Positions 8,095 through 56,431 of a stretch of 64,000 nt of DNA are shown here, one piece after another. Within the stretch, counting starts at the first letter, position 1. The number at the start of each line of letters is the position of its first letter. The translations under genes were made by a program, and so were the position numbers. The stretch is from a virus, in the IMG/VR virus record IMGVR_UViG_3300031857_000094, positions 1 to 64,000 of that record, one strand, 5' to 3'. The notes beneath the pieces were generated by a model. That model did not search any database and was not told the origin of the DNA. It saw nothing but the letters and a program-made list of their open reading frames with translations.

Positions 8095-8102
8095 TATTTA
8101 TT
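8095..8102 (-). promoter_or_regulatory. Late promoter AATAAATA upstream of gp13
   Basis: TAAATA core overlapping the cyclase stop codon. Confidence 0.65.
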
Positions 8103-10165
8103 CATTTTGATGTGGCGCGATATACTCCATCCCAGTTTTTGGGTATATCAGCGTTTCGTAGCTCCTCAATGCGCTCCTCCATCATTCCATAATATTCAGT
8201 GAGTTCGCCTTTAAACGCATTTCGCAACACTTTGATATACTGTAATGCGTTATCCCAGTTTTGATAGCGATACTGTTTAATGAAGTCTCTATGAGTTTTT
8301 AGATATGTGTGATCAACTCCTGTCCCATTGACAATCGTAAAGATACGGACTCCTTTCGATTTACCTTTTACAGCGATGCAGTCTAGCTCTGCTAGTGGAT
8401 ATGCTCCGTCAAGCAGTTCTGCTGTGCGCTCACCGATGATAATACGAACGTGATACGGTTTGCTCTGTCCCTCTAACCGCGAAGCCAAGTTGACAGAATC
8501 CCCCAAACAGGTATAATCAAATCTTTGACTGGAACCCATATTGCCAACGACAACATCACCAGAATTGATACCGAGACCCATACCAAAAGGAGGAACTCCT
8601 TCAGGCGCGATAGAAGCGTTAAAAGCATCGAGATCATCGAGCATTGCGAGACCCGTGCGAACTGCGTTTTTAGCGTGTTCGCGATCATCCAAAGGCGCGT
8701 TCCAGAAAGCCATCTGCGCATCGCCGATATACTTGTCGAGTGTTCCATTGTTTTCTAAAATCCTTGCAGTCATCGCTGTCATGTAGCGATTCATTATCTG
8801 AGTAAGACCTTGAACGTCAGATCCATAATGCTCACTAATAGAAGTGAAGCCGCGCACATCAGTAAACATAATTGAAAGTTCACGAGTTTCTCCTCCTAGG
8901 CGTAGTAGCTCAGGATTCTTCTGTAACTTTTCAACAAGAGCTGGTGAAAGATATGTACCAAACTGCTTTTTGATTTGCAGCTTCAATCTATTCTCGCGCG
9001 CGAAGTTGTTATATACTAAGTGACCAAAGCTGAAAGTGCCTGCCAACAATAAATAACTAGCATCCCACAGCTGCATGTGTTCTTTGAACATGTAGTAAGA
9101 ACCATATGCGGAGGATCCAACGAATGCTAGATATAATGGCACTGTCAATGAAACAGATGTTCTTGGTACAAGAAAGAGCAATAATCCTAGCATTACAGAC
9201 AGAACGAGCAATTCAAGAGTCTTCGCGAAAGGCAGTCGGGTTATACTTGATCCATCTATCAAAGTTTGCAATGCAGCAGCTTGAACTTCATGGCTCCACT
9301 TTTCACCCAACGGCGTGCCGATAATCCCACCAACGCCTTCAATCGTTAATCCTAAGACAACAATTTTTCCTTCGACTTTATCTTTTGTAGCTTCTGTTGC
9401 ATCGACGCGCTCGAAGTTATTGTTCCATGTTGTCCAGATGCGACCACGCTCGTCTGTGGAGATTGCGGGGAACTGCGGGATGCGGACTGCTTCGACACCT
9501 GCTTGACCTGTTTTGATTTGGTAAGATGGATCTCCAGCCACTGCTCGTAGGGTTTCCAATACAAGTGAAGGATACAGTGTATCCCCAATCCTAACCAGCA
9601 TAGGCAAGCGACGAACAACCCCATCACGCTCAGGTGTTGCAGCGAGAACCCCAACCCCTTCGGCAACGTCAGCGAAAGATCGTAGAGGAGATATAGCCCC
9701 AGGCCAAGAATAGACCCATGAATTAGGGTCATCACCGATACTAGCGAAGCCTCTGCGAACAGCATCTGGCGCTCTTCGCTGAGCTGTTGGTGTTTGCGAT
9801 ATAACGACACCACCAGCCGCAATAGATTTTGCCAAATCGGCATCGCCACCAGCGCGATCTTTTTCACTAAAAAGAATAGGAACGACGATAGCTGCAGCGC
9901 CAGCAGCACGAAGACGTTCAATAGTCGCAGCGATGTCTCGACGGTCGAATGGCCATTGACCGTATTCCTGAACTGACTTTTCGCCGAACTCAACCAGAAC
10001 AACTTCATCGGACTTCTTTTGCTCCAAAGATGTTATGAAGTAGTCAAAAGTTTTCAGTTGTAAAGTTTCAATGGGAGATGGATTCAATATGAACAGGATG
10101 ACAAGCATCAAAGCTGATGCGATAGCCGCCCACGTCGAAGTGAGATATTTGCCAAACGTTTCCAT
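8102..10165 (-). CDS. CHASE2-domain class III adenylate cyclase, membrane-bound
   Basis: N-terminal TM, CHASE2 motifs (GQWPFDR, DGVVRRLPM), three TMs, then cyclase motifs IMFTDVRGFT, DKYIGDAQMAFWNAP, RFDYTCLGDSVNLASRLEG. Confidence 0.92.
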   Translation of the reverse strand: METFGKYLTSTWAAIASALMLVILFILNPSPIETLQLKTFDYFITSLEQKKSDEVVLVEFGEKSVQEYGQWPFDRRDIAATIERLRAAGAAAIVVPILFSEKDRAGGDADLAKSIAAGGVVISQTPTAQRRAPDAVRRGFASIGDDPNSWVYSWPGAISPLRSFADVAEGVGVLAATPERDGVVRRLPMLVRIGDTLYPSLVLETLRAVAGDPSYQIKTGQAGVEAVRIPQFPAISTDERGRIWTTWNNNFERVDATEATKDKVEGKIVVLGLTIEGVGGIIGTPLGEKWSHEVQAAALQTLIDGSSITRLPFAKTLELLVLSVMLGLLLFLVPRTSVSLTVPLYLAFVGSSAYGSYYMFKEHMQLWDASYLLLAGTFSFGHLVYNNFARENRLKLQIKKQFGTYLSPALVEKLQKNPELLRLGGETRELSIMFTDVRGFTSISEHYGSDVQGLTQIMNRYMTAMTARILENNGTLDKYIGDAQMAFWNAPLDDREHAKNAVRTGLAMLDDLDAFNASIAPEGVPPFGMGLGINSGDVVVGNMGSSQRFDYTCLGDSVNLASRLEGQSKPYHVRIIIGERTAELLDGAYPLAELDCIAVKGKSKGVRIFTIVNGTGVDHTYLKTHRDFIKQYRYQNWDNALQYIKVLRNAFKGELTEYYGMMEERIEELRNADIPKNWDGVYRATSK

Positions 10166-10167
10166 GA

Positions 10168-10431
10168 TCAGTATTGATTGACGATATAAGGAGAAGAAGG
10201 GCAGCTACTGTAACAAGAAACGCTAAGGCTGAAAGACTGTGGAGTATTTCCTGACTGCGTGACCGAGACGCTGATGCCGTCGCCCGCCAATTGTAAATTA
10301 GCAGAATGACCAACAGCAGACTGAGTGATAGTAACATTTTGTGTTGATCCTATAATATTGACTGTTGCGTTGTTAACCTGTTGTGCGTTAGCAGAAACGG
10401 TCAGTAACAATAGAGCTGCTAATACTTTCAT
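10168..10431 (-). CDS. Small secreted curlin-repeat-like protein
   Basis: Signal peptide, NxAxV / VTITQ / SVTQSGN beta repeats, C-terminal Cys pair. Confidence 0.5.
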   Translation of the reverse strand: MKVLAALLLLTVSANAQQVNNATVNIIGSTQNVTITQSAVGHSANLQLAGDGISVSVTQSGNTPQSFSLSVSCYSSCPSSPYIVNQY

Positions 10432-10432
10432 A

Positions 10433-11539
10433 TCAGTTCCCCTGCTTGATGGTGATAGTCGTAGTTCCTGCGCTGTTTACCATCTGTGTAATCTCGACAC
10501 CATCTTGTGTTAGTTTCATAGTCATGCTTTGGCTAATCGGAACTGTAACCTGAGCATACGCATTGAAGGATTCGCGATACAAGGTAACGAAATCATCTTC
10601 AACAAAGTATTTGAGCCCCGTTGCTGCATTGTATTTAGGCAAAAGTGCGTTGAATTCTGCAAGCTCATTTGTCAACATCTGCGAGCTGGAAAGATCCAAA
10701 AGATTGATAAGGAAGTCGCTGTCAAGGAAGTTGCGATCTAGTTTGTTGTATTCGGTCAGATAGTTCTTATCTAGTTCGGTATACTTTAGCAAATCTTTAC
10801 CAAGCAAATCTTCGTCGAGATAGTTATAGCCTTTAGCTTCTGTATGAACTTCTACGGTTGCAGATTTTGGCGGAGTAACAATCAAAAGATTATTGATTTG
10901 ATCCAAACTCAAATTCATGATACTTGATCTAGGAGTATTCATGCTTGTTTGAACGTTGACCGTTTCAAATGGTTTAGTTAGAATAACAGTTCCCATATCC
11001 GTTGTTACGGAAATAGATCCAGTGATACAATCGCGTTCTATGTTTTTCCAACCAGTAGGGCAAGAAGGTAGAAGAATAATAGTAGAACGACCAATCTCAT
11101 CAACTGTCCCAGAAAAGTCGGTGCCACGAACTCCAATAGTAGCAGTCGGAGTTTCCACCATAACTTGTTGCGGGTCGCTCTTCGCGATCTGTCCTGAAGC
11201 ATATTTGATTGTCCCCAATGCCATCTTCATTCCGAGCTTGCCAGTTTTTTTACTGTCATCGTAAACGAAGTTGTCGATTACTAATCTAGAATGCTCAGTA
11301 ATTTGAACTCGTGTATCATCTCTGAACGTGATTCCAGCGCGACCATTCGCGGTTGTAATAGTATCCTGCATCTCAACACCAGTATCTTTGGCGCTGGGAA
11401 TCACGTTCGTATTGCGTTTTATTTCAGCTGGTCCTGTTAACTCTGTTACTTTTCCAATATCAGCATTACTGATGGTTGGACTTGATAGTAAGAGTATTGC
11501 CAGAGCCAGTGATTGTAGAAATGACCTTAGAGTCAACAC
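10433..11539 (-). CDS. FecR-domain periplasmic protein
   Basis: Signal peptide; DTITTANG..ITFRDDTRVQITEHSRL; VETPTATIGVRGTDF FecR signature. Confidence 0.85.
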   Translation of the reverse strand: MLTLRSFLQSLALAILLLSSPTISNADIGKVTELTGPAEIKRNTNVIPSAKDTGVEMQDTITTANGRAGITFRDDTRVQITEHSRLVIDNFVYDDSKKTGKLGMKMALGTIKYASGQIAKSDPQQVMVETPTATIGVRGTDFSGTVDEIGRSTIILLPSCPTGWKNIERDCITGSISVTTDMGTVILTKPFETVNVQTSMNTPRSSIMNLSLDQINNLLIVTPPKSATVEVHTEAKGYNYLDEDLLGKDLLKYTELDKNYLTEYNKLDRNFLDSDFLINLLDLSSSQMLTNELAEFNALLPKYNAATGLKYFVEDDFVTLYRESFNAYAQVTVPISQSMTMKLTQDGVEITQMVNSAGTTTITIKQGN

Positions 11540-12143
11540 CGCCGCCTTGCTTGATATCTACTGTGTTTGTTGCACCTAAGATATTCACGTCAGCGTCGTG
11601 ACCGTTTGTGCCAGCAGCACCAGTCTGAATAATGTTAACATCGTTTCCACCACCGCCAGCGATAAGAACAGTGCTCTTAGCTCCAGCAACAGCAGTCGAA
11701 TCATTTTGAATGTTTACAGTATTGTTATCAGTATTGATTGTAACATTGGAAATCGTAAGACCATCAGCTGATTGAGTTACAGTGTTTCCATCACCAGTAA
11801 TCGTGTTATTGATTATAGAGCTTGTACAAGTTCCGCTTACACCGCAAGCGATGTTCACAGTATTATTATCACCTGTTACAAGCGAGTTCACTTGTACGTC
11901 ATCACCCTGCACATTAATTGCAGTGATGTTAGAGTTACCGATCTGGTCAATAGTTACAATATTGTTTTGACCGTTGATTATAGCCTTATCGGTAGGATTG
12001 CCAATCGCATTCGAATTGCCTGTTTGAGTCATAGAAATTGTAGAGCCACTACCGATTTGGTCTACATACACACTATTTCCCGCGGCGTTTGCATATTGAA
12101 ACATAACCAAGAATGACAACAGTGTCATACTTGAGAGTTTCAT
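11466..12143 (-). CDS. Secreted curlin-repeat (CsgA/CsgB-like) protein
   Basis: Signal peptide and repeated QxGxxN / GDNNTVNI units rich in N, G, Q, T; adjacent to csgG. Confidence 0.65.
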   Translation of the reverse strand: MKLSSMTLLSFLVMFQYANAAGNSVYVDQIGSGSTISMTQTGNSNAIGNPTDKAIINGQNNIVTIDQIGNSNITAINVQGDDVQVNSLVTGDNNTVNIACGVSGTCTSSIINNTITGDGNTVTQSADGLTISNVTINTDNNTVNIQNDSTAVAGAKSTVLIAGGGGNDVNIIQTGAAGTNGHDADVNILGATNTVDIKQGGGVDSKVISTITGSGNTLTIKSNHQ

Positions 12144-12148
12144 TCCTT

Positions 12149-12952
12149 TTACCTCTTCTTGATACTCCAGAGCTTTTTCTTAGCTCCCTCCTTAATCATA
12201 TCAGCAACTGCTGCTTCAATAGCTATTCTTACAGCGTATGTCGTAGGTTCGTTCACAGAGTTACCAGCTTCAAACTCAACGGACTTAGTGCCCACATCAA
12301 TAAACTTGAATACGTTTGCGCCAGCGCCTGTGCTCAATACAGTTTTAGATGCTCCAGTCGATAATAGAACTTCACCAGTGTTGATAGAAATCAAACGTAG
12401 CACAACAGTCACTTCGTCTTTTCTATATTCCTGATTAGCGCCAACTCCTAAGAAGCGAGCACCAATACCACCAGTTCCGATATTACTATCATATCCGACA
12501 ACTCCGCCATCCAACATAATCCCAGCAACAGTCAATGGAGTTAGTGGCTTTGCTTGATCCTTTTCGTAAAGCTCGCGCTGACTGCGAATCAGCTGACGTT
12601 CCTTTACAAGATTATCAAGCGCACTACGCTCTACAACCTGAAACCATTTACCGCGACCAGCGTCTTGTAGTGCTTTGATTAGAAACACTTCTGAACCTTG
12701 TGTCACAGCAGAACTCAAACTAGCGAAGTTCGCTGCTGGCTTACGCTGTCCTGTTAGATCAGGAAAACGATATACAGCAATTGGAATGACTGGACCATCT
12801 ACTCCAGGCAAATTCACTAGCTCGTTGAACCGCTTCGTCGTAATAACTTCAGGAGCTTCCGCTCGGGCTTCAATAGATTCTTTTGTTACCGACTCAGCTG
12901 TGCAACCAGCCAACAGTATAGTAGCAAGAATCATACCAAATATCTTTACCAT
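12149..12952 (-). CDS. csgG: Curli secretion channel CsgG-like lipoprotein
   Basis: Lipobox LLAGC; IAVYRFPDLTGQRKP, STAVTQG-like SSAVTQG, WFQVVER..LDNLVKERQLIR, GIGARFLGVG. Confidence 0.92.
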   Translation of the reverse strand: MVKIFGMILATILLAGCTAESVTKESIEARAEAPEVITTKRFNELVNLPGVDGPVIPIAVYRFPDLTGQRKPAANFASLSSAVTQGSEVFLIKALQDAGRGKWFQVVERSALDNLVKERQLIRSQRELYEKDQAKPLTPLTVAGIMLDGGVVGYDSNIGTGGIGARFLGVGANQEYRKDEVTVVLRLISINTGEVLLSTGASKTVLSTGAGANVFKFIDVGTKSVEFEAGNSVNEPTTYAVRIAIEAAVADMIKEGAKKKLWSIKKR

Positions 12953-13386
12953 GCTAAACTCCCATAAGGAACAACAACTTCAGTGACGCTACCGCCAGCG
13001 TCTGTAATTCTTAATGTGATTTGTGATCCATCAGATGACCATTGAACATTGTTTGATGCGATATCAAACGATCCACTCGTATTACCATTATCAGAAAACA
13101 ATTGCTCCGCAATTTTTTGCGATAAAGTCGCGTACACGCGCGACTCTAAGTTGTTTAGAAACTTCGCAAGGTTAGTATTTTTTGCAGCCGCAGCTTCAGC
13201 AGCTGCTTGAGCTTTTTTATCTTCGGCAATTTTTTGACGGCGTGATGCTTCTAAGTTATCAATCGTCAAAACGTGAGCAGAGTAACCAATGCCGCTGAAC
13301 GATGGACTTTTATATTGAAATTGAATTTCACTTGCTAGCGTCTGGCTGCTTATCAGTAGCAGCGTTGTTGCCATTAGAATGCGCAT
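12946..13386 (-). CDS. csgF: Curli assembly protein CsgF-like
   Basis: Signal peptide then EIQFQYKSPSFSG, resembling the CsgF N-terminus FQFRNPNFGG; overlaps csgG start. Confidence 0.8.
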   Translation of the reverse strand: MRILMATTLLLISSQTLASEIQFQYKSPSFSGIGYSAHVLTIDNLEASRRQKIAEDKKAQAAAEAAAAKNTNLAKFLNNLESRVYATLSQKIAEQLFSDNGNTSGSFDIASNNVQWSSDGSQITLRITDAGGSVTEVVVPYGSLAW

Positions 13387-13633
13387 CTTTCATCTCCTCG
13401 ATTTCTTTGCCTCTTAGCGTCAGAACTACGTTGACCTTTTGATTCAATCGAATTAGGTCATTATCGAGCATACGGATACGATCAATCAACGCAATTAGAA
13501 CTGTGTTAGCTTCAGAAAGAACTGGCTTGATTTCTTGAGTAGCCCACTTCCAAACGTAGAAGATAAGATAGCCCATGCCGCCAGCAGCGACGATAGGAAA
13601 GCCATACTTATTGATCAGTGATACTACGTCCAT
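13328..13633 (-). CDS. Small single-TM membrane protein (holin-like candidate)
   Basis: INKYGFPIVAAGG TM followed by coiled coil; paralogous to the next gene. Confidence 0.55.
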   Translation of the reverse strand: MDVVSLINKYGFPIVAAGGMGYLIFYVWKWATQEIKPVLSEANTVLIALIDRIRMLDNDLIRLNQKVNVVLTLRGKEIEEMKDAHSNGNNAATDKQPDASK

Positions 13634-13911
13634 CAGTCTCTCCTTGCGTCGTTTTTGCCATCAGCTCTTGCGATACGATCTACGTCTGGCTTTACGCCAA
13701 GAGCATTTGACACAAGAGTGTCGACGCGAATGACGTCGTGATTCATAGTCTTCACGCGATTGTCAAGAGCCGTAATAATGTTGCTCATACCCTTGACACT
13801 TGACATAACACCAGCTAGAATAAACTTGAGCGTCAAAAAGACGAAATATCCGCCAGCAAGGGCTGATGCAATAGGAAAGCCCACTTCAGCAACCAGCTTA
13901 AAAAAGTCCAT
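13633..13911 (-). CDS. Small single-TM membrane protein (holin-like candidate)
   Basis: VAEVGFPIA TM; LDNRVKTMNHDVIR resembles LIDRIRMLDNDLIR of the neighbour. Confidence 0.55.
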   Translation of the reverse strand: MDFFKLVAEVGFPIASALAGGYFVFLTLKFILAGVMSSVKGMSNIITALDNRVKTMNHDVIRVDTLVSNALGVKPDVDRIARADGKNDARRD

Positions 13912-13934
13912 AACACATCCTTTCAGTTTTACAC

Positions 13935-13942
13935 TATTTATT
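13935..13942 (-). promoter_or_regulatory. Late promoter AATAAATA heading the curli/FecR/cyclase operon
   Basis: TAAATA core 24 nt upstream of ATG 13911, with an AAAGGA SD between. Confidence 0.65.
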
Positions 13943-13962
13943 CAGGAGTGCTATATAATAGT

Positions 13963-14937
13963 ATGCTTAGATCATTAGTTTTCTTCCTGACGCTGTCTGC
14001 GAGCGCGATGGCTCAGGAATTAAGAGTTATCACTCCTTCTCCTGCAGATAGTTACAATATCAACGCTAGAATCCTGGCTCCGTATATGGCAAAGTATCTG
14101 CTTGAGAAGCCAACTCCTGTAATTCAAGTGATGCCTGGAGCTTCGAGTTTGGTCGCTACGAATTACATGTACAACGTGGCTCCTAAAGACGGGAACACAA
14201 TCGCGACCGTTTATAAAAACATTCCGCTTGTAGGTATTCTCGGTGGCCCTACTGTTATGTTCGATCCAACGAAGTTCAATTGGATTGGCTCGACTGTTGA
14301 TGGTCGTAAAGATGCAGTCTTAGTATGGACACATCGCAAAGAATCACTCACAGAGTTTAAAACTAAGGAACTCATTGTCGGAACAGAAAGTATCGTTTCC
14401 GCAGACTCTACAAAGTTCATTCGAAACTCGCTCGGACTAAACTTCAAGCAGATCGCTGGTTACGCTAATCCAGGCGCTGCGCGACTAGCTCTTGAACGCA
14501 AAGAAGTCGATGCTGTTATTTTTAATTTGCTTGGGATCAAAACACAAACACAATGGACTGATCCAAATAGCGGCATCCGCGCATTGCTACAGTTTGGTAA
14601 CGGTAAGATTCGCCATCCAGATTTCAAAAACGTTCCAACATTCGCAGAGCTTATTACGAACGAAGATGATAAGGCTATTCTTGATATCTTCGAAACACAG
14701 TTTATCCTACTGAGACCATTCATCGCTCCACCTGGAGTTCCTGCTGCTAGAGTAAAAGAACTTCGCGAAGCGTTCAACAAAGCTGTCAACGATGTCGGAT
14801 ACATAGAAGAAGCGACTAAGGCTAGAATGGAAATACAGCTGATCACAGGTGAGCAGGCTGAGCATATTGTAGCTGTTTCATCGAATGCTTCTCAAGCAGT
14901 TTTAGATAAACTTAGAAACCTTCAGAGTGAAAAATGA
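13963..14937 (+). CDS. Tripartite tricarboxylate transporter substrate-binding protein (TctC/Bug family)
   Basis: Signal peptide; MPGASSLVATNYMYNVAPKDGNTI; RPFIAPPGVPAARVKELREAF; ATG 13963 preferred over GTG 13948. Confidence 0.85.
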   Translation: MLRSLVFFLTLSASAMAQELRVITPSPADSYNINARILAPYMAKYLLEKPTPVIQVMPGASSLVATNYMYNVAPKDGNTIATVYKNIPLVGILGGPTVMFDPTKFNWIGSTVDGRKDAVLVWTHRKESLTEFKTKELIVGTESIVSADSTKFIRNSLGLNFKQIAGYANPGAARLALERKEVDAVIFNLLGIKTQTQWTDPNSGIRALLQFGNGKIRHPDFKNVPTFAELITNEDDKAILDIFETQFILLRPFIAPPGVPAARVKELREAFNKAVNDVGYIEEATKARMEIQLITGEQAEHIVAVSSNASQAVLDKLRNLQSEK

Positions 14938-15617
14938 TTGAACATGCACTATTCCCCACGCTAGTCTGTGAGTTTCACTATAATAAGAAGGATGAGTTCA
15001 AGCAGCTCTTCTATCAAAAGATCTTTGACTATATGACCCCAGAGGGATACTCAAACGAGTTCACTGGTCACGTCAATATCCATCACGAAGAATCGTTCGC
15101 TCCATTTTTCGCATACGCAATTAACTGTGCTAAACAGTATGCTGCACGTTTGCATATCGACACGAATAAGTTCGAGTTCAATCTAGTCAAGACGTGGATG
15201 AACATTAAGAAAGATGACTCGACGCCATATCACGCGCACGGGGATGCGCACATTTCGTTCACTTATTATGTGAACGTTCCATCAACGTTTGTTCGACCTA
15301 TTCGCTTTCATAATCATGAGCGCAGGCACGAACCATATCCTGGCTCTATCCGCTGGAATAACACAAGCGATACTTGGGATTGGTTGAACGCATACACTTG
15401 GCAGTTTGAACCAGTCGAGGGACAGCTGCTAGTATTCCCTTCGACGCTTCCTCATGATACTATTGGTCAGACAAATGGTGAAGATAAAGGTAATCCGACT
15501 GTAGAAGAGCTAAACGAAAATCGTATTTGTCTTGCAGCCGATATCCTTCTCACATACAAAGATAAGACCGCAAGTCCACTTGGTGTCCAACCAGTTAGCA
15601 ATTGGAGACAGTTTTGA
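14934..15617 (+). CDS. Putative 2OG-Fe(II) oxygenase (TIGR02466-like)
   Basis: LFPT start, WMNI, HAH..HISFTYYVNVP, LLVFPSTLPH. Confidence 0.75.
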   Translation: MIEHALFPTLVCEFHYNKKDEFKQLFYQKIFDYMTPEGYSNEFTGHVNIHHEESFAPFFAYAINCAKQYAARLHIDTNKFEFNLVKTWMNIKKDDSTPYHAHGDAHISFTYYVNVPSTFVRPIRFHNHERRHEPYPGSIRWNNTSDTWDWLNAYTWQFEPVEGQLLVFPSTLPHDTIGQTNGEDKGNPTVEELNENRICLAADILLTYKDKTASPLGVQPVSNWRQF

Positions 15618-16225
15618 GCTATACTACAATCTACAATAATCCTTGGCAGAGATCACAAATCACTTATCCATTCGTTACATGGGATAATGGATTTACAGAA
15701 GAAGAGCTTAATGCTATTATTGAATACTGCGACTCGAACGGGACTGAACTTGGTACTACGTTTGGCGCATCTTCAGAAGAAGAAATTAAAGCACATCGCG
15801 TATCAAACGTAAAGTTTCATGGCAGGAATGAGAACACAGCATGGATATTTGACAAGCTCAACTTTATCATTCAAGCATCAAACGAGCAGTTCTACAACTT
15901 CAACTTGAATGGATATTCTGAGTTTCAATATACAACATACGATCCTAATGGTCGTTATGATTGGCATACAGATATGTCATTCGGTGAAAAGTATGGTAAT
16001 GATGCAGAACCACGCAAACTATCAATGACGCTTTTATTGAATGATGGTTTTGAAGGCGGTGAGTTTCAGATCAACAATGGTAAGCAAGAAACACCAATCA
16101 CAGTAGATATGTTTAAAGGACGGGTTGTTTTGTTCCCGTCCTTTATGATTCATCGTGTGAAACCTGTGACTAAAGGTGTTCGTAAGTCGCTGGTTGTTTG
16201 GGTGCTTGGTCCTAAGTTCGTTTAA
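15602..16225 (+). CDS. 2OG-Fe(II) oxygenase, prolyl-4-hydroxylase/PKHD type
   Basis: YDWHTD (HxD), RKLSMT, FEGGEF, LFPSFMIHRVKPVTKGVRKSLV; start codon uncertain. Confidence 0.88.
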   Translation: METVLSYTTIYNNPWQRSQITYPFVTWDNGFTEEELNAIIEYCDSNGTELGTTFGASSEEEIKAHRVSNVKFHGRNENTAWIFDKLNFIIQASNEQFYNFNLNGYSEFQYTTYDPNGRYDWHTDMSFGEKYGNDAEPRKLSMTLLLNDGFEGGEFQINNGKQETPITVDMFKGRVVLFPSFMIHRVKPVTKGVRKSLVVWVLGPKFV

Positions 16226-55783: not shown

Positions 55784-55859
55784 TGGTTCGGGGTGATGGG
55801 ATCGAACCACCAACCTACGGATTCAAAGTCCGCTGTTCTACCAATTGAACTAACCCCGA
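55784..55859 (-). tRNA. tRNA-Gln (UUG), CCA encoded
   Basis: 76-nt cloverleaf: TCGGGGT/ACCCCGA acceptor, GTTC/GAAC D stem, GCGGA-CTTTGAA-TCCGT anticodon arm, GGTGG-TTCGATC-CCATC T arm, ACCA. Confidence 0.95.
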
Positions 55860-56109: not shown

Positions 56110-56382
56110 AAGTGGGGGGATTCTGTTTCCAAGCTCCCCCCGAGCTCATTCTTAGGCAGCTAGTGCGTAAGAGATAGGTGCATTATCGTTTGCATCTAAA
56201 ACGCGCTTTTGGTCTCTTCGCATCTTTACTACGCACGTCGATCCTAGTTCACCCCCATCAAAAACAGTAGCATCCAATCCTTACAGCGATGGTTCACATT
56301 GGGCTTCCTACTGCTTATGGTGGAGGCGGCGGGTACTGCCCCCGCGTCCGAAACGTTTATTCCATACGCCTCAACGACCTTA
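56110..56382 (-). ncRNA. ssrA: Circularly permuted two-piece tmRNA; tag (A)ANDNAPISYALAA
   Basis: Acceptor piece ends GCGGG-GGCAGTA-CCCGC CGCCTCC ACCA (56318); 61-nt spacer; coding piece starts GGGGGTGAACTAGGATCGAC (56256); G3.U70 pair; tag at 56193-56152; outer ends approximate. Confidence 0.92.
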
Positions 56383-56388
56383 GCATAG

Positions 56389-56422
56389 TATTTATTCTAG
56401 CTTGCTTTACTCTGATTGTCAA
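56389..56422 (-). promoter_or_regulatory. Overlapping sigma70 and late promoters for tmRNA/tRNA
   Basis: TTGACA (56422-17), 17 nt, TAGAAT (56399-94), overlapped by AATAAATA (56396-89). Confidence 0.7.
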
Positions 56423-56431
56423 GAACTCATT

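Follow-up and report, generated by a model that had tools for sequence, protein, structure and literature searches.

A type VIII secretion (T8SS, or curli) module in podo- and myoviral pelagiphages has been described by Wittmers et al. (2022, mSystems; PMC9599517), whose account of it lists one or two ‘histidine kinase’ genes, CsgF, CsgG, CsgA/B, FecR, often a second CsgA/B, and an adenylate cyclase. In the trees reported there, the viral CsgG, CsgF, FecR and cyclase fall nearest to alphaproteobacterial versions, and the module is proposed to have passed from myoviruses to podoviruses. It is reported from all 65 GOV2.0 ocean stations, with evidence of expression in Pacific metatranscriptomes. 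Here we analyse a cassette of eight minus-strand open reading frames (ORFs), running from 13911 down to 8102, in a 64,000-nt stretch of viral DNA (the window; positions 1 to 64,000 of the IMG/VR virus record IMGVR_UViG_3300031857_000094). The cassette is a freshwater T4-like phage copy of the T8SS + FecR + adenylate cyclase module known from marine pelagiphages. It joins an alphaproteobacterial-type curli secretion set with a pair made of a FecR-domain protein and a CHASE2 cyclase, two units that are kept apart in the bacteria sampled.

The same paper places FecR, kinase and cyclase outside bacterial T8SS operons and describes alphaproteobacterial curli loci as lacking CsgC, CsgD and CsgE; in its treatment of the module FecR is taken as an iron regulator, and the word CHASE is not used. 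The main texts of PMC9004378 and PMC7029224 discuss csgF/csgG and do not mention the cyclase or FecR, and PMC7029224 (Zaragoza-Solas) presents its authors' freshwater pelagimyophages as having no curli operon. A literature search found no later work on phage T8SS with a cyclase after PMC9599517. Given that paper and the GenBank annotation of the Methylophilales phage Melnitz and the Pelagibacter phage HTVC008M, the central claim of an initial annotation of the window was already in print. That annotation had rightly treated the csgF/csgG pair as known in phages; the addition of FecR and cyclase, which it had offered as new, is not, with the whole set present in both sources.

The window is part of an 82.6-kb record estimated to hold about half of a genome, and has a G+C content of approximately 43%. 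Its TerL is about 56% identical to the TerL of cyanomyophages, HTVC008M and Melnitz. The eight ORFs are tightly spaced, and their coordinates give overlaps of 1, 59, 7 and 74 nt and gaps of 5, 1 and 2 nt. Six domains exceed the curated Pfam cut-offs in the cassette (CsgF, CsgG, Curlin_rpt, FecR, CHASE2 and Guanylate_cyc), and viral families of PHROGs match six of the eight proteins. These family matches, together with a full-length PHROGs match of the cyclase at 7e-214, were the first sign that the cassette is common in phages. All of the ORFs listed in the initial annotation are present, and the identities that it gave to the eight coupled genes are borne out by Pfam, model and profile evidence.

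Scanning IMG/VR with the cyclase returned at least 593 relatives, and gene order was read in the best 80 loci. Of the cyclase-selected loci, 45 have 6 kb or more of upstream sequence, and in every one of them csgF, csgG, curlin and FecR follow one another in this order on the cyclase strand. A scan with CsgG gave more than 590 relatives, of which 80 loci were examined (14 on contigs common to the cyclase scan). Where flanking sequence was available, csgF lies upstream of csgG in 76/76 of these loci, curlin and FecR are present in 63/63, and a same-strand cyclase is found in 43/45. Co-occurrence of cyclase and FecR with csgFG in related phages, the test set in advance by the initial annotation, is thus seen at 45/45 and 43/45 loci, and linkage of pore and cyclase in IMG/VR viruses is near universal. 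The slot between FecR and cyclase is the variable part of the cassette. Among the 45 loci it is empty in 7, holds a gene of the 87-aa type (approximately 220-330 nt) in 24, and spans 0.5-5.5 kb in 14. One of the long inserts (L058, 4993-8267, plus strand) carries an extra curlin-repeat gene together with unrelated Amidoligase_2 and DUF6934 genes. The cassette also occurs on IMG/VR contigs of 286-364 kb, the size of jumbo phages (L184, L189, L195, L219, L221), two of which (L195 and L219) have two cyclase matches each. The window sequence itself turned up in 20 runs, which come from 16 studies; 9 carry the label freshwater metagenome, 10 ‘fungus metagenome’ and 1 metagenome.

On the bacterial side, the 80 loci closest to the viral cyclase were collected from bacterial genomes, using profiles built from the phage proteins (E ≤ 1e-3) on sampled genomes. 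One of these (L084, RGCF01000015.1, labelled as a Bacteroidetes metagenome-assembled genome) holds the whole phage cassette including both small genes, with a cyclase 49% identical to that of the window. This is probably phage DNA that was binned with a bacterial genome, and the contig was excluded. The remaining 79 loci are mostly from Alphaproteobacteria, with cyclases 33-39% identical to the viral one. A FecR-domain ORF lies within 10 kb of the cyclase in 29 of them, and in 18 of those 29, by inspection, it is upstream and its end is no more than about 160 nt from the cyclase; none of csgF, csgG and curlin was found in any of the loci (0/79). Conversely, a strong CsgG is present in 7 of 401 sampled Alphaproteobacteria, all seven with csgF and curlin ORFs within 9.5 kb, and in 0/7 of these loci is FecR or cyclase nearby. 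No bacterial locus combining curli, FecR and CHASE2 was found in the 79 cyclase loci, the 7 CsgG loci or 3 whole genomes with such cyclases. With bacterial curli loci lacking FecR and cyclase, and cyclase-FecR loci lacking curli, the phage module interleaves two bacterial units.

FecR-domain and CHASE2 proteins are a recurrent bacterial pairing. Five of the bacterial FecR-domain ORFs were scanned against Pfam; they are 656-1,736 aa long, and four of them also have cadherin-like, Big_9 or RTX repeats, while the fifth (L097) has FecR alone. In Bradyrhizobium and other Alphaproteobacteria (L110, L114, L115, L117, L125, L129, L130, L137, L138 and others), the ORF directly upstream of the CHASE2 cyclase reaches up to about 3,000 aa and begins with an N-terminal FecR domain. 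Such an ORF resembles an adhesin of the cell surface, with a periplasmic end that could communicate with the cyclase. In Sinorhizobium meliloti, the gene smc02177 presumably lies beside cyaD1. It encodes a FecR domain (PMC5498481), and the CHASE2 cyclases of this organism are reported to be responsive to a plant protein by way of NsrA, a protein of the outer membrane (PMC13001267). A cluster in Campylobacterota comprises a CHASE2 cyclase, a phosphodiesterase, a FecR-domain outer-membrane protein and a tetratricopeptide repeat (TPR) protein (PMC9239204), and in Burkholderia a LysM/FecR protein adjoins a CHASE2 kinase (PMC5192318).

The last gene of the phage cassette (8102-10165, minus strand, as are all eight) encodes a CHASE2 class III adenylate cyclase of 687 aa. 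Pfam CHASE2 matches residues 20-326 at 136.7 bits (cut-off 26.3; 1.4e-39), and hydrophobic segments at 7-35 and 311-344 flank this region; Guanylate_cyc matches residues 428-604 at 72.4 bits (cut-off 21.9; 4.8e-20). In class III cyclases two aspartates bind metal (here D436 and D482), a Lys/Asp pair selects the substrate ATP (K478 and D550), and an Asn/Arg pair stabilizes the transition state (N559 and R563). All six are conserved without exception in 13 viral homologs and align with their equivalents in solved adenylate cyclases, for example CyaB (3r5g). From its sequence the catalytic site is intact, as the initial annotation had it, and of the ATP-specific kind, and cyclic AMP (cAMP) is the predicted product. 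The protein is 42% identical to the Melnitz cyclase and 39% identical to that of HTVC008M.

The pore genes lie upstream in the same unit. The CsgG-like outer-membrane lipoprotein (12149-12952, 267 aa) scores 177.5 bits against Pfam CsgG (cut-off 20.8; 2.9e-52), and its residues 5-265 align to E. coli CsgG (3x2r) over the full length (E 8.4e-48). Its lipobox, L-A-G-C with Cys17, aligns with that of E. coli, and Cys17 is invariant in 18 viral homologs. The phage protein also matches the model of the Caulobacter holdfast-anchor protein HfaB at 1.5e-10, far under the cut-off of that model, which fits an alphaproteobacterial source of the phage CsgG. The preceding gene, csgF (12946-13386), overlaps csgG by 7 nt and encodes a protein of 146 aa with a signal-peptide-like start. 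It matches Pfam CsgF at 63.6 bits (cut-off 25.8; 2.7e-17), over profile positions 3-132 of 132, and phrog_35372 at 4.3e-45. CsgE and CsgC were not detected anywhere in the 82.6-kb record by a search that recovered them in an E. coli control, in agreement with the initial annotation, which had recognised neither.

Two curlin-type proteins, both with signal-peptide-like starts, flank the FecR gene. The first (11466-12143, 225 aa) matches Pfam Curlin_rpt with a single repeat, with more repeats below threshold. Its AlphaFold model is all beta (predicted local distance difference test score, pLDDT, 84.9; predicted template modelling score, pTM, 0.79). The best match among 48,161 solved chains is CsgA of Pontibacter korlensis (8c50_A, Z 19.6), with 190 residues aligned at 23% identity; the root-mean-square deviation (rmsd) of 8.5 is explained by a different solenoid twist. 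Generic beta-helices of the SufB/D type come close behind CsgA (Z 16-18), and Foldseek returned weak beta-helix matches only. We describe the protein as a predicted curlin beta-solenoid, with export via CsgG and amyloid assembly putative. The second protein (10168-10431, 87 aa) occupies the variable FecR-cyclase slot and has no Pfam match. Profile comparison with hhalign relates it to the 225-aa family, both as a sequence against the profile (probability 72%, E 3.4e-5) and as family against family (94.7%, E 5.9e-8), and Curlin_rpt is present in 37% of the 159 viral members of its Atlas cluster. By this comparison of sequences it is a short relative of the 225-aa curlin family. The initial annotation had called both proteins curlin-like, and the predicted solenoid fold of the 225-aa protein with CsgA as best match, along with the secretion-type starts of both, speaks for that assignment.

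Between these two lies the gene for a secreted FecR-domain protein (10433-11539, GTG start, 368 aa), which scores 44.9 bits against Pfam FecR (cut-off 24; 1.7e-11). Its model (pLDDT 71.9) has a FecR-type beta domain at approximately 29-210, a low-confidence linker at 222-301 and a C-terminal beta domain at 310-365. Residues 56-223 superpose on the C-terminal cell-surface signalling domain of PupR (6ovk_R) with Z 15.1 and rmsd 3.0 over 136 aligned residues, and 4m0h_B is also matched (Z 14.3; Foldseek E 3.6e-5). In PupR, the FecR-type domain makes contact with an outer-membrane transducer by binding its periplasmic signalling domain. The phage protein has a signal-peptide-like start, with beta strands from residue 29, and neither a cytoplasmic anti-sigma part nor a transmembrane helix. 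Because the anti-sigma part is absent, we speak of a FecR-domain protein and not of a FecR regulator. Among the eight genes of the cassette, Pfam recognised no sigma factor and no TonB-dependent transducer. The search for homologues of this protein gave no bacterial context, as the 120 matches listed are all close metagenomic relatives (at least 63% identity). Additionally, residues 25-119 match a ‘cell surface anchoring domain’ of 76 residues (5ix9) with Z 7.1, a level that can reflect merely a common arrangement, over 73 aligned residues (rmsd 2.1, 20% identity). We take 5ix9 to come from a giant ice-binding adhesin of the RTX type, as its retention domain. The C-terminal domain was also considered as a curlin repeat that could join the fibre, and this found no support: hhalign gave 0.5% for residues 300-368 against the 225-aa family, and 12.7% and 11.3% for the family of this domain against the long and the short curlin, compared with 94.7% for the short-versus-long curlin control.

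The cassette begins with two small membrane proteins, of 92 aa (13633-13911) and 101 aa (13328-13633), that match phrog_18771 at 1.8e-33 and 3.4e-33. They are paralogs (26% identity over 92 aa, E 3e-12), with a hydrophobic stretch at residues 3-40 in the first, which continues as a helical tail, and at residues 11-28 in the second. Neither matches a Pfam family at E ≤ 0.01, or at E ≤ 10 except for TM140 (0.11), and neither matches NCBIfam; their Atlas clusters are exclusively viral. The only cultured phages in which the first occurs are Melnitz and HTVC008M, with 4 and 2 records respectively, and all six records carry the cassette. From their position we infer that the two correspond to the ‘HK’ genes of PMC9599517. 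The ‘histidine kinase’ label used there finds no support in the window, where no HisKA or HATPase domain was recognised in the 92- and 101-aa proteins. Both small genes are present at 61 of the related IMG/VR loci, always close to the rest of the cassette but not always co-oriented with it: 49 loci have them beyond the cyclase and on the other strand, 10 share the upstream, same-strand arrangement of the window, and in 2 they are downstream and co-oriented. The description of one operon of eight genes therefore holds for the lineage of the window and does not extend to most related loci. In one locus (L026), an ORF with a homing-endonuclease-like NUMOD3 domain (11417-11884, minus strand) separates the two small genes.

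A late-promoter-like motif, GAATAAATA, precedes the first gene (13935-13943, minus strand), and its ATAAATA core ends 23 nt ahead of the ATG at 13911. The T4-type late promoter consensus is TATAAATA. The window holds five copies of GAATAAATA against 0.76 expected, a count reached in 0/100 shuffles, and 9 of the 12 ATAAATA cores are on the minus strand, which carries most of the structural genes. A second copy (8095-8103, minus strand) marks the downstream edge of the cassette, where it overlaps the stop codon of the cyclase and precedes a gp13-like gene. No further minus-strand ATAAATA lies within the cassette. The initial annotation was right to place a single such motif ahead of the eight genes. 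In many related loci, although not in all, the core precedes csgF or the first small gene by 15-45 nt. On this sequence pattern the motif at the head of the cassette is a predicted late-type promoter.

Directly downstream of the cassette, genes follow in T4 order (gp13-, gp14- and gp15-like, TerS, TerL and tail sheath), which makes its placement next to neck gene 13 correct. The initial annotation put the cassette between this gene and the fibre region; the fibre genes are some 8 kb away on the upstream side, past a block of enzyme genes. Divergent from the head of the cassette (13948-16225, plus strand) are genes for a secreted TctC-like solute-binding protein and two 2OG-Fe(II) oxygenases. 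Elsewhere in the window, a permuted transfer-messenger RNA (tmRNA) of the alphaproteobacterial type (alpha_tmRNA, Rfam 117.8 bits; 56111-56426, minus strand) adjoins a tRNA-Gln (55784-55859, minus strand), and ARAGORN assigns it a tag peptide of the ANDN... type. A copy of GAATAAATA (56389-56397, minus strand) is located close to the 5′ end of this tmRNA. A two-piece tmRNA is described for Melnitz too (PMC9004378). No glutamine riboswitch scored above the Rfam threshold in the window.

One possible explanation for this combination of genes is a relay that spans the envelope. Late in infection, CsgG and CsgF would form an outer-membrane pore, and the pore would export the two curlin-type proteins to give a surface fibre. 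The periplasmic FecR-domain protein would then link the pore, the fibre or something arriving through the pore to the periplasmic CHASE2 domain, and the cyclase would set cAMP in the infected cell. Since the search for a cNMP-binding protein of the phage gave none, the cAMP would act on a receptor of the host. The pair of small membrane paralogs, which accompanies the module, may serve as partners in the inner membrane. Signal-peptide-like or lipoprotein-type starts are present on the five exported proteins of the cassette. A layout of surface fibre, pore, periplasmic relay and cAMP output, already proposed in the initial annotation, is plausible, in that it fits the predicted locations and the bacterial precedents for FecR with CHASE2. 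These locations (outer membrane, surface, periplasm and inner membrane), together with the PupR-like fold and the rhizobial precedent, make the relay the best-supported reading; every contact within it is inferred by us, and we give the chain as a whole about an even chance of being right.

Several observations weigh against this relay. The cyclase domain also matches Pycsar models (PADLOC PycC, 1.3e-26), the only defence-system models to match the cassette. No cNMP_binding domain was found in the record of the window or in 5 relatives (three IMG/VR records estimated to be 90-100% complete, Melnitz and HTVC008M), in a search that did not extend to other receiver folds. A Pycsar system, in which the cyclase adjoins an effector with a cNMP-binding domain, was rejected because that domain was not found in these same genomes. 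The pore and FecR can exist without the cyclase, as seen from one locus with no cyclase within 7.9 kb (L183), another with the cyclase on the opposite strand (L189), and the account in PMC9599517, where FecR and cyclase are not in every viral curli region and the cyclase is rarer in podoviruses. The pore may differ from E. coli CsgG, whose three constriction residues, which we take to be Tyr, Asn and Phe, face Ala, Ser and Leu in the HMMER alignment; in the same alignment the constriction loop of the phage protein is one residue longer, with an Asn-Phe pair just upstream. A phmmer search of CsgF against PDB sequences returned weak lectin matches and no CsgF chain, and the Curlin_rpt score of the 225-aa protein (22.8 bits) barely exceeds the cut-off (20.7). 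Finally, no RNA run is among those listed as carrying the window sequence.

A more specific form of the relay can be put forward tentatively, with a distinctly lower likelihood. The phage might install a surface-sensing pathway, in which a fibre built via CsgG/CsgF is coupled by the FecR-domain protein to CHASE2, and contact with a cell, a particle or a superinfecting virion is turned into a late cAMP signal. If true, this signal could set lysis timing or host physiology, and the same logic would explain the large FecR adhesin-like genes directly before the closest bacterial cyclases. It is possible that the linker of the FecR-domain protein threads the pore, as in retained RTX adhesins, a suggestion based on the disordered linker, the match to 5ix9 (Z 7.1) and the adhesin-like FecR genes upstream of bacterial cyclases.

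After the relay we rank a role centred on the fibre, then lysis timing, then uptake. The fibre-centred proposal, made in PMC7029224 (Zaragoza-Solas 2020) and PMC9599517 (Wittmers 2022), is that curli-like fibres make infected cells clump with cells nearby (‘sibling capture’) or protect them against other phages; FecR and the cyclase, through cAMP, would then tune fibre output instead of reporting a signal from outside. CsgG, CsgF and two curlin-type proteins do make up a complete minimal secretion set, and FecR is tied to the pore more tightly (63/63) than is the cyclase (43/45). However, no clumping of Melnitz-infected cells is reported from cytograms or transmission electron microscopy (Buchholz et al., PMC9004378), genes behind a phage late-type motif have no obvious need for cAMP control of transcription, and the closest bacterial cyclases are paired with FecR in loci without curli, which indicates a role of its own for that pair. 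We regard the fibre-centred proposal as possible, at roughly half the likelihood of the relay. An explanation by lysis timing, which extends an idea set out in PMC9004378 (Buchholz 2022), would have the CsgG/CsgF pore, perhaps with the small paralogs as holin and antiholin, open late and depolarise or permeabilise the envelope, with the cyclase as timer or sensor. The late-type motif before the unit would suit such a function, as would the two small paralogs, which always accompany the module and each have one N-terminal hydrophobic segment followed by a helical tail. They match no holin family in Pfam or PHROGs, however; an outer-membrane CsgG alone cannot collapse the potential of the inner membrane, and the conserved curlin subunits and CsgF are left without a role, so that we consider lysis timing unlikely. 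Least probable is an uptake channel, raised in PMC7029224 and PMC9599517, in which a pore without a CsgE gate (and the record has no CsgE) admits nutrients or cofactors while FecR senses iron citrate as in E. coli, since the phage protein keeps only the periplasmic FecR domain, with no anti-sigma part or transmembrane helix, the cassette has no sigma factor or TonB-dependent transducer gene, and the curlin subunits and CsgF would be unexplained.

The window adds little that is new in kind, and the module itself is very common. What this analysis adds is the freshwater occurrence, the CHASE2 identity of the sensor, the PupR-like fold of the FecR-domain protein, the two separate bacterial units and the position by the neck gene. 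With the module, an infected cell would gain a pore in its outer membrane, a fibre and a source of second messenger, all lacking in the known hosts. If the FecR-CHASE2 half reads the envelope or the outside, it would represent a virus-encoded sensory pathway and a handle on the ligand logic of CHASE2.

Compared with bacterial curli, the phage set shares a lipoprotein CsgG that can be aligned over its full length, the CsgF family and a CsgA-like predicted curlin solenoid. It differs in having a FecR gene, flanked by the curlin genes, and a cyclase as the last gene; 0/7 alphaproteobacterial curli loci have either of these two. With the bacterial FecR and CHASE2 pairs it shares a FecR-domain gene adjoining that of a membrane protein with a periplasmic CHASE2 domain, and cAMP as output in the rhizobial and campylobacterial cases; the S. 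meliloti pairs concerned are CyaD1/CyaD2/CyaK with NsrA and SMc02177. The five bacterial FecR-domain ORFs scanned are far larger, the partner elsewhere is an outer-membrane or LysM protein, and no curli genes are nearby in the 79 loci, whereas the phage protein has 368 aa and a small C-terminal beta domain of its own. The FecR/PupR anti-sigma regulators have the same periplasmic fold, and the phage protein differs from them in having no anti-sigma domain, membrane helix or partner extracytoplasmic function (ECF) sigma factor.

The closest likeness is to the pelagiphage module. The GenBank records of HTVC008M (KC465899) and Melnitz (MZ577097) show the same order of small gene or genes, CsgF, CsgG, curlin, FecR, second curlin and adenylate cyclase, likewise without CsgE, and the CsgG of the window is 46-48% identical to theirs. 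The second curlin has 87 aa in the window, compared with 338 and 441 aa in the Melnitz/HTVC008M phages, and the small genes of the window are co-directional with the module. The habitats differ as well, with the window DNA occurring in freshwater or ‘fungus’ metagenome runs and the pelagiphage module being marine. So does the position in the genome, which is directly upstream of the gp13-like neck gene in the window and between DNA-replication and baseplate genes in Melnitz and HTVC008M. A freshwater lineage with the module at a different genomic position indicates that these genes move, and stay together, as a block.

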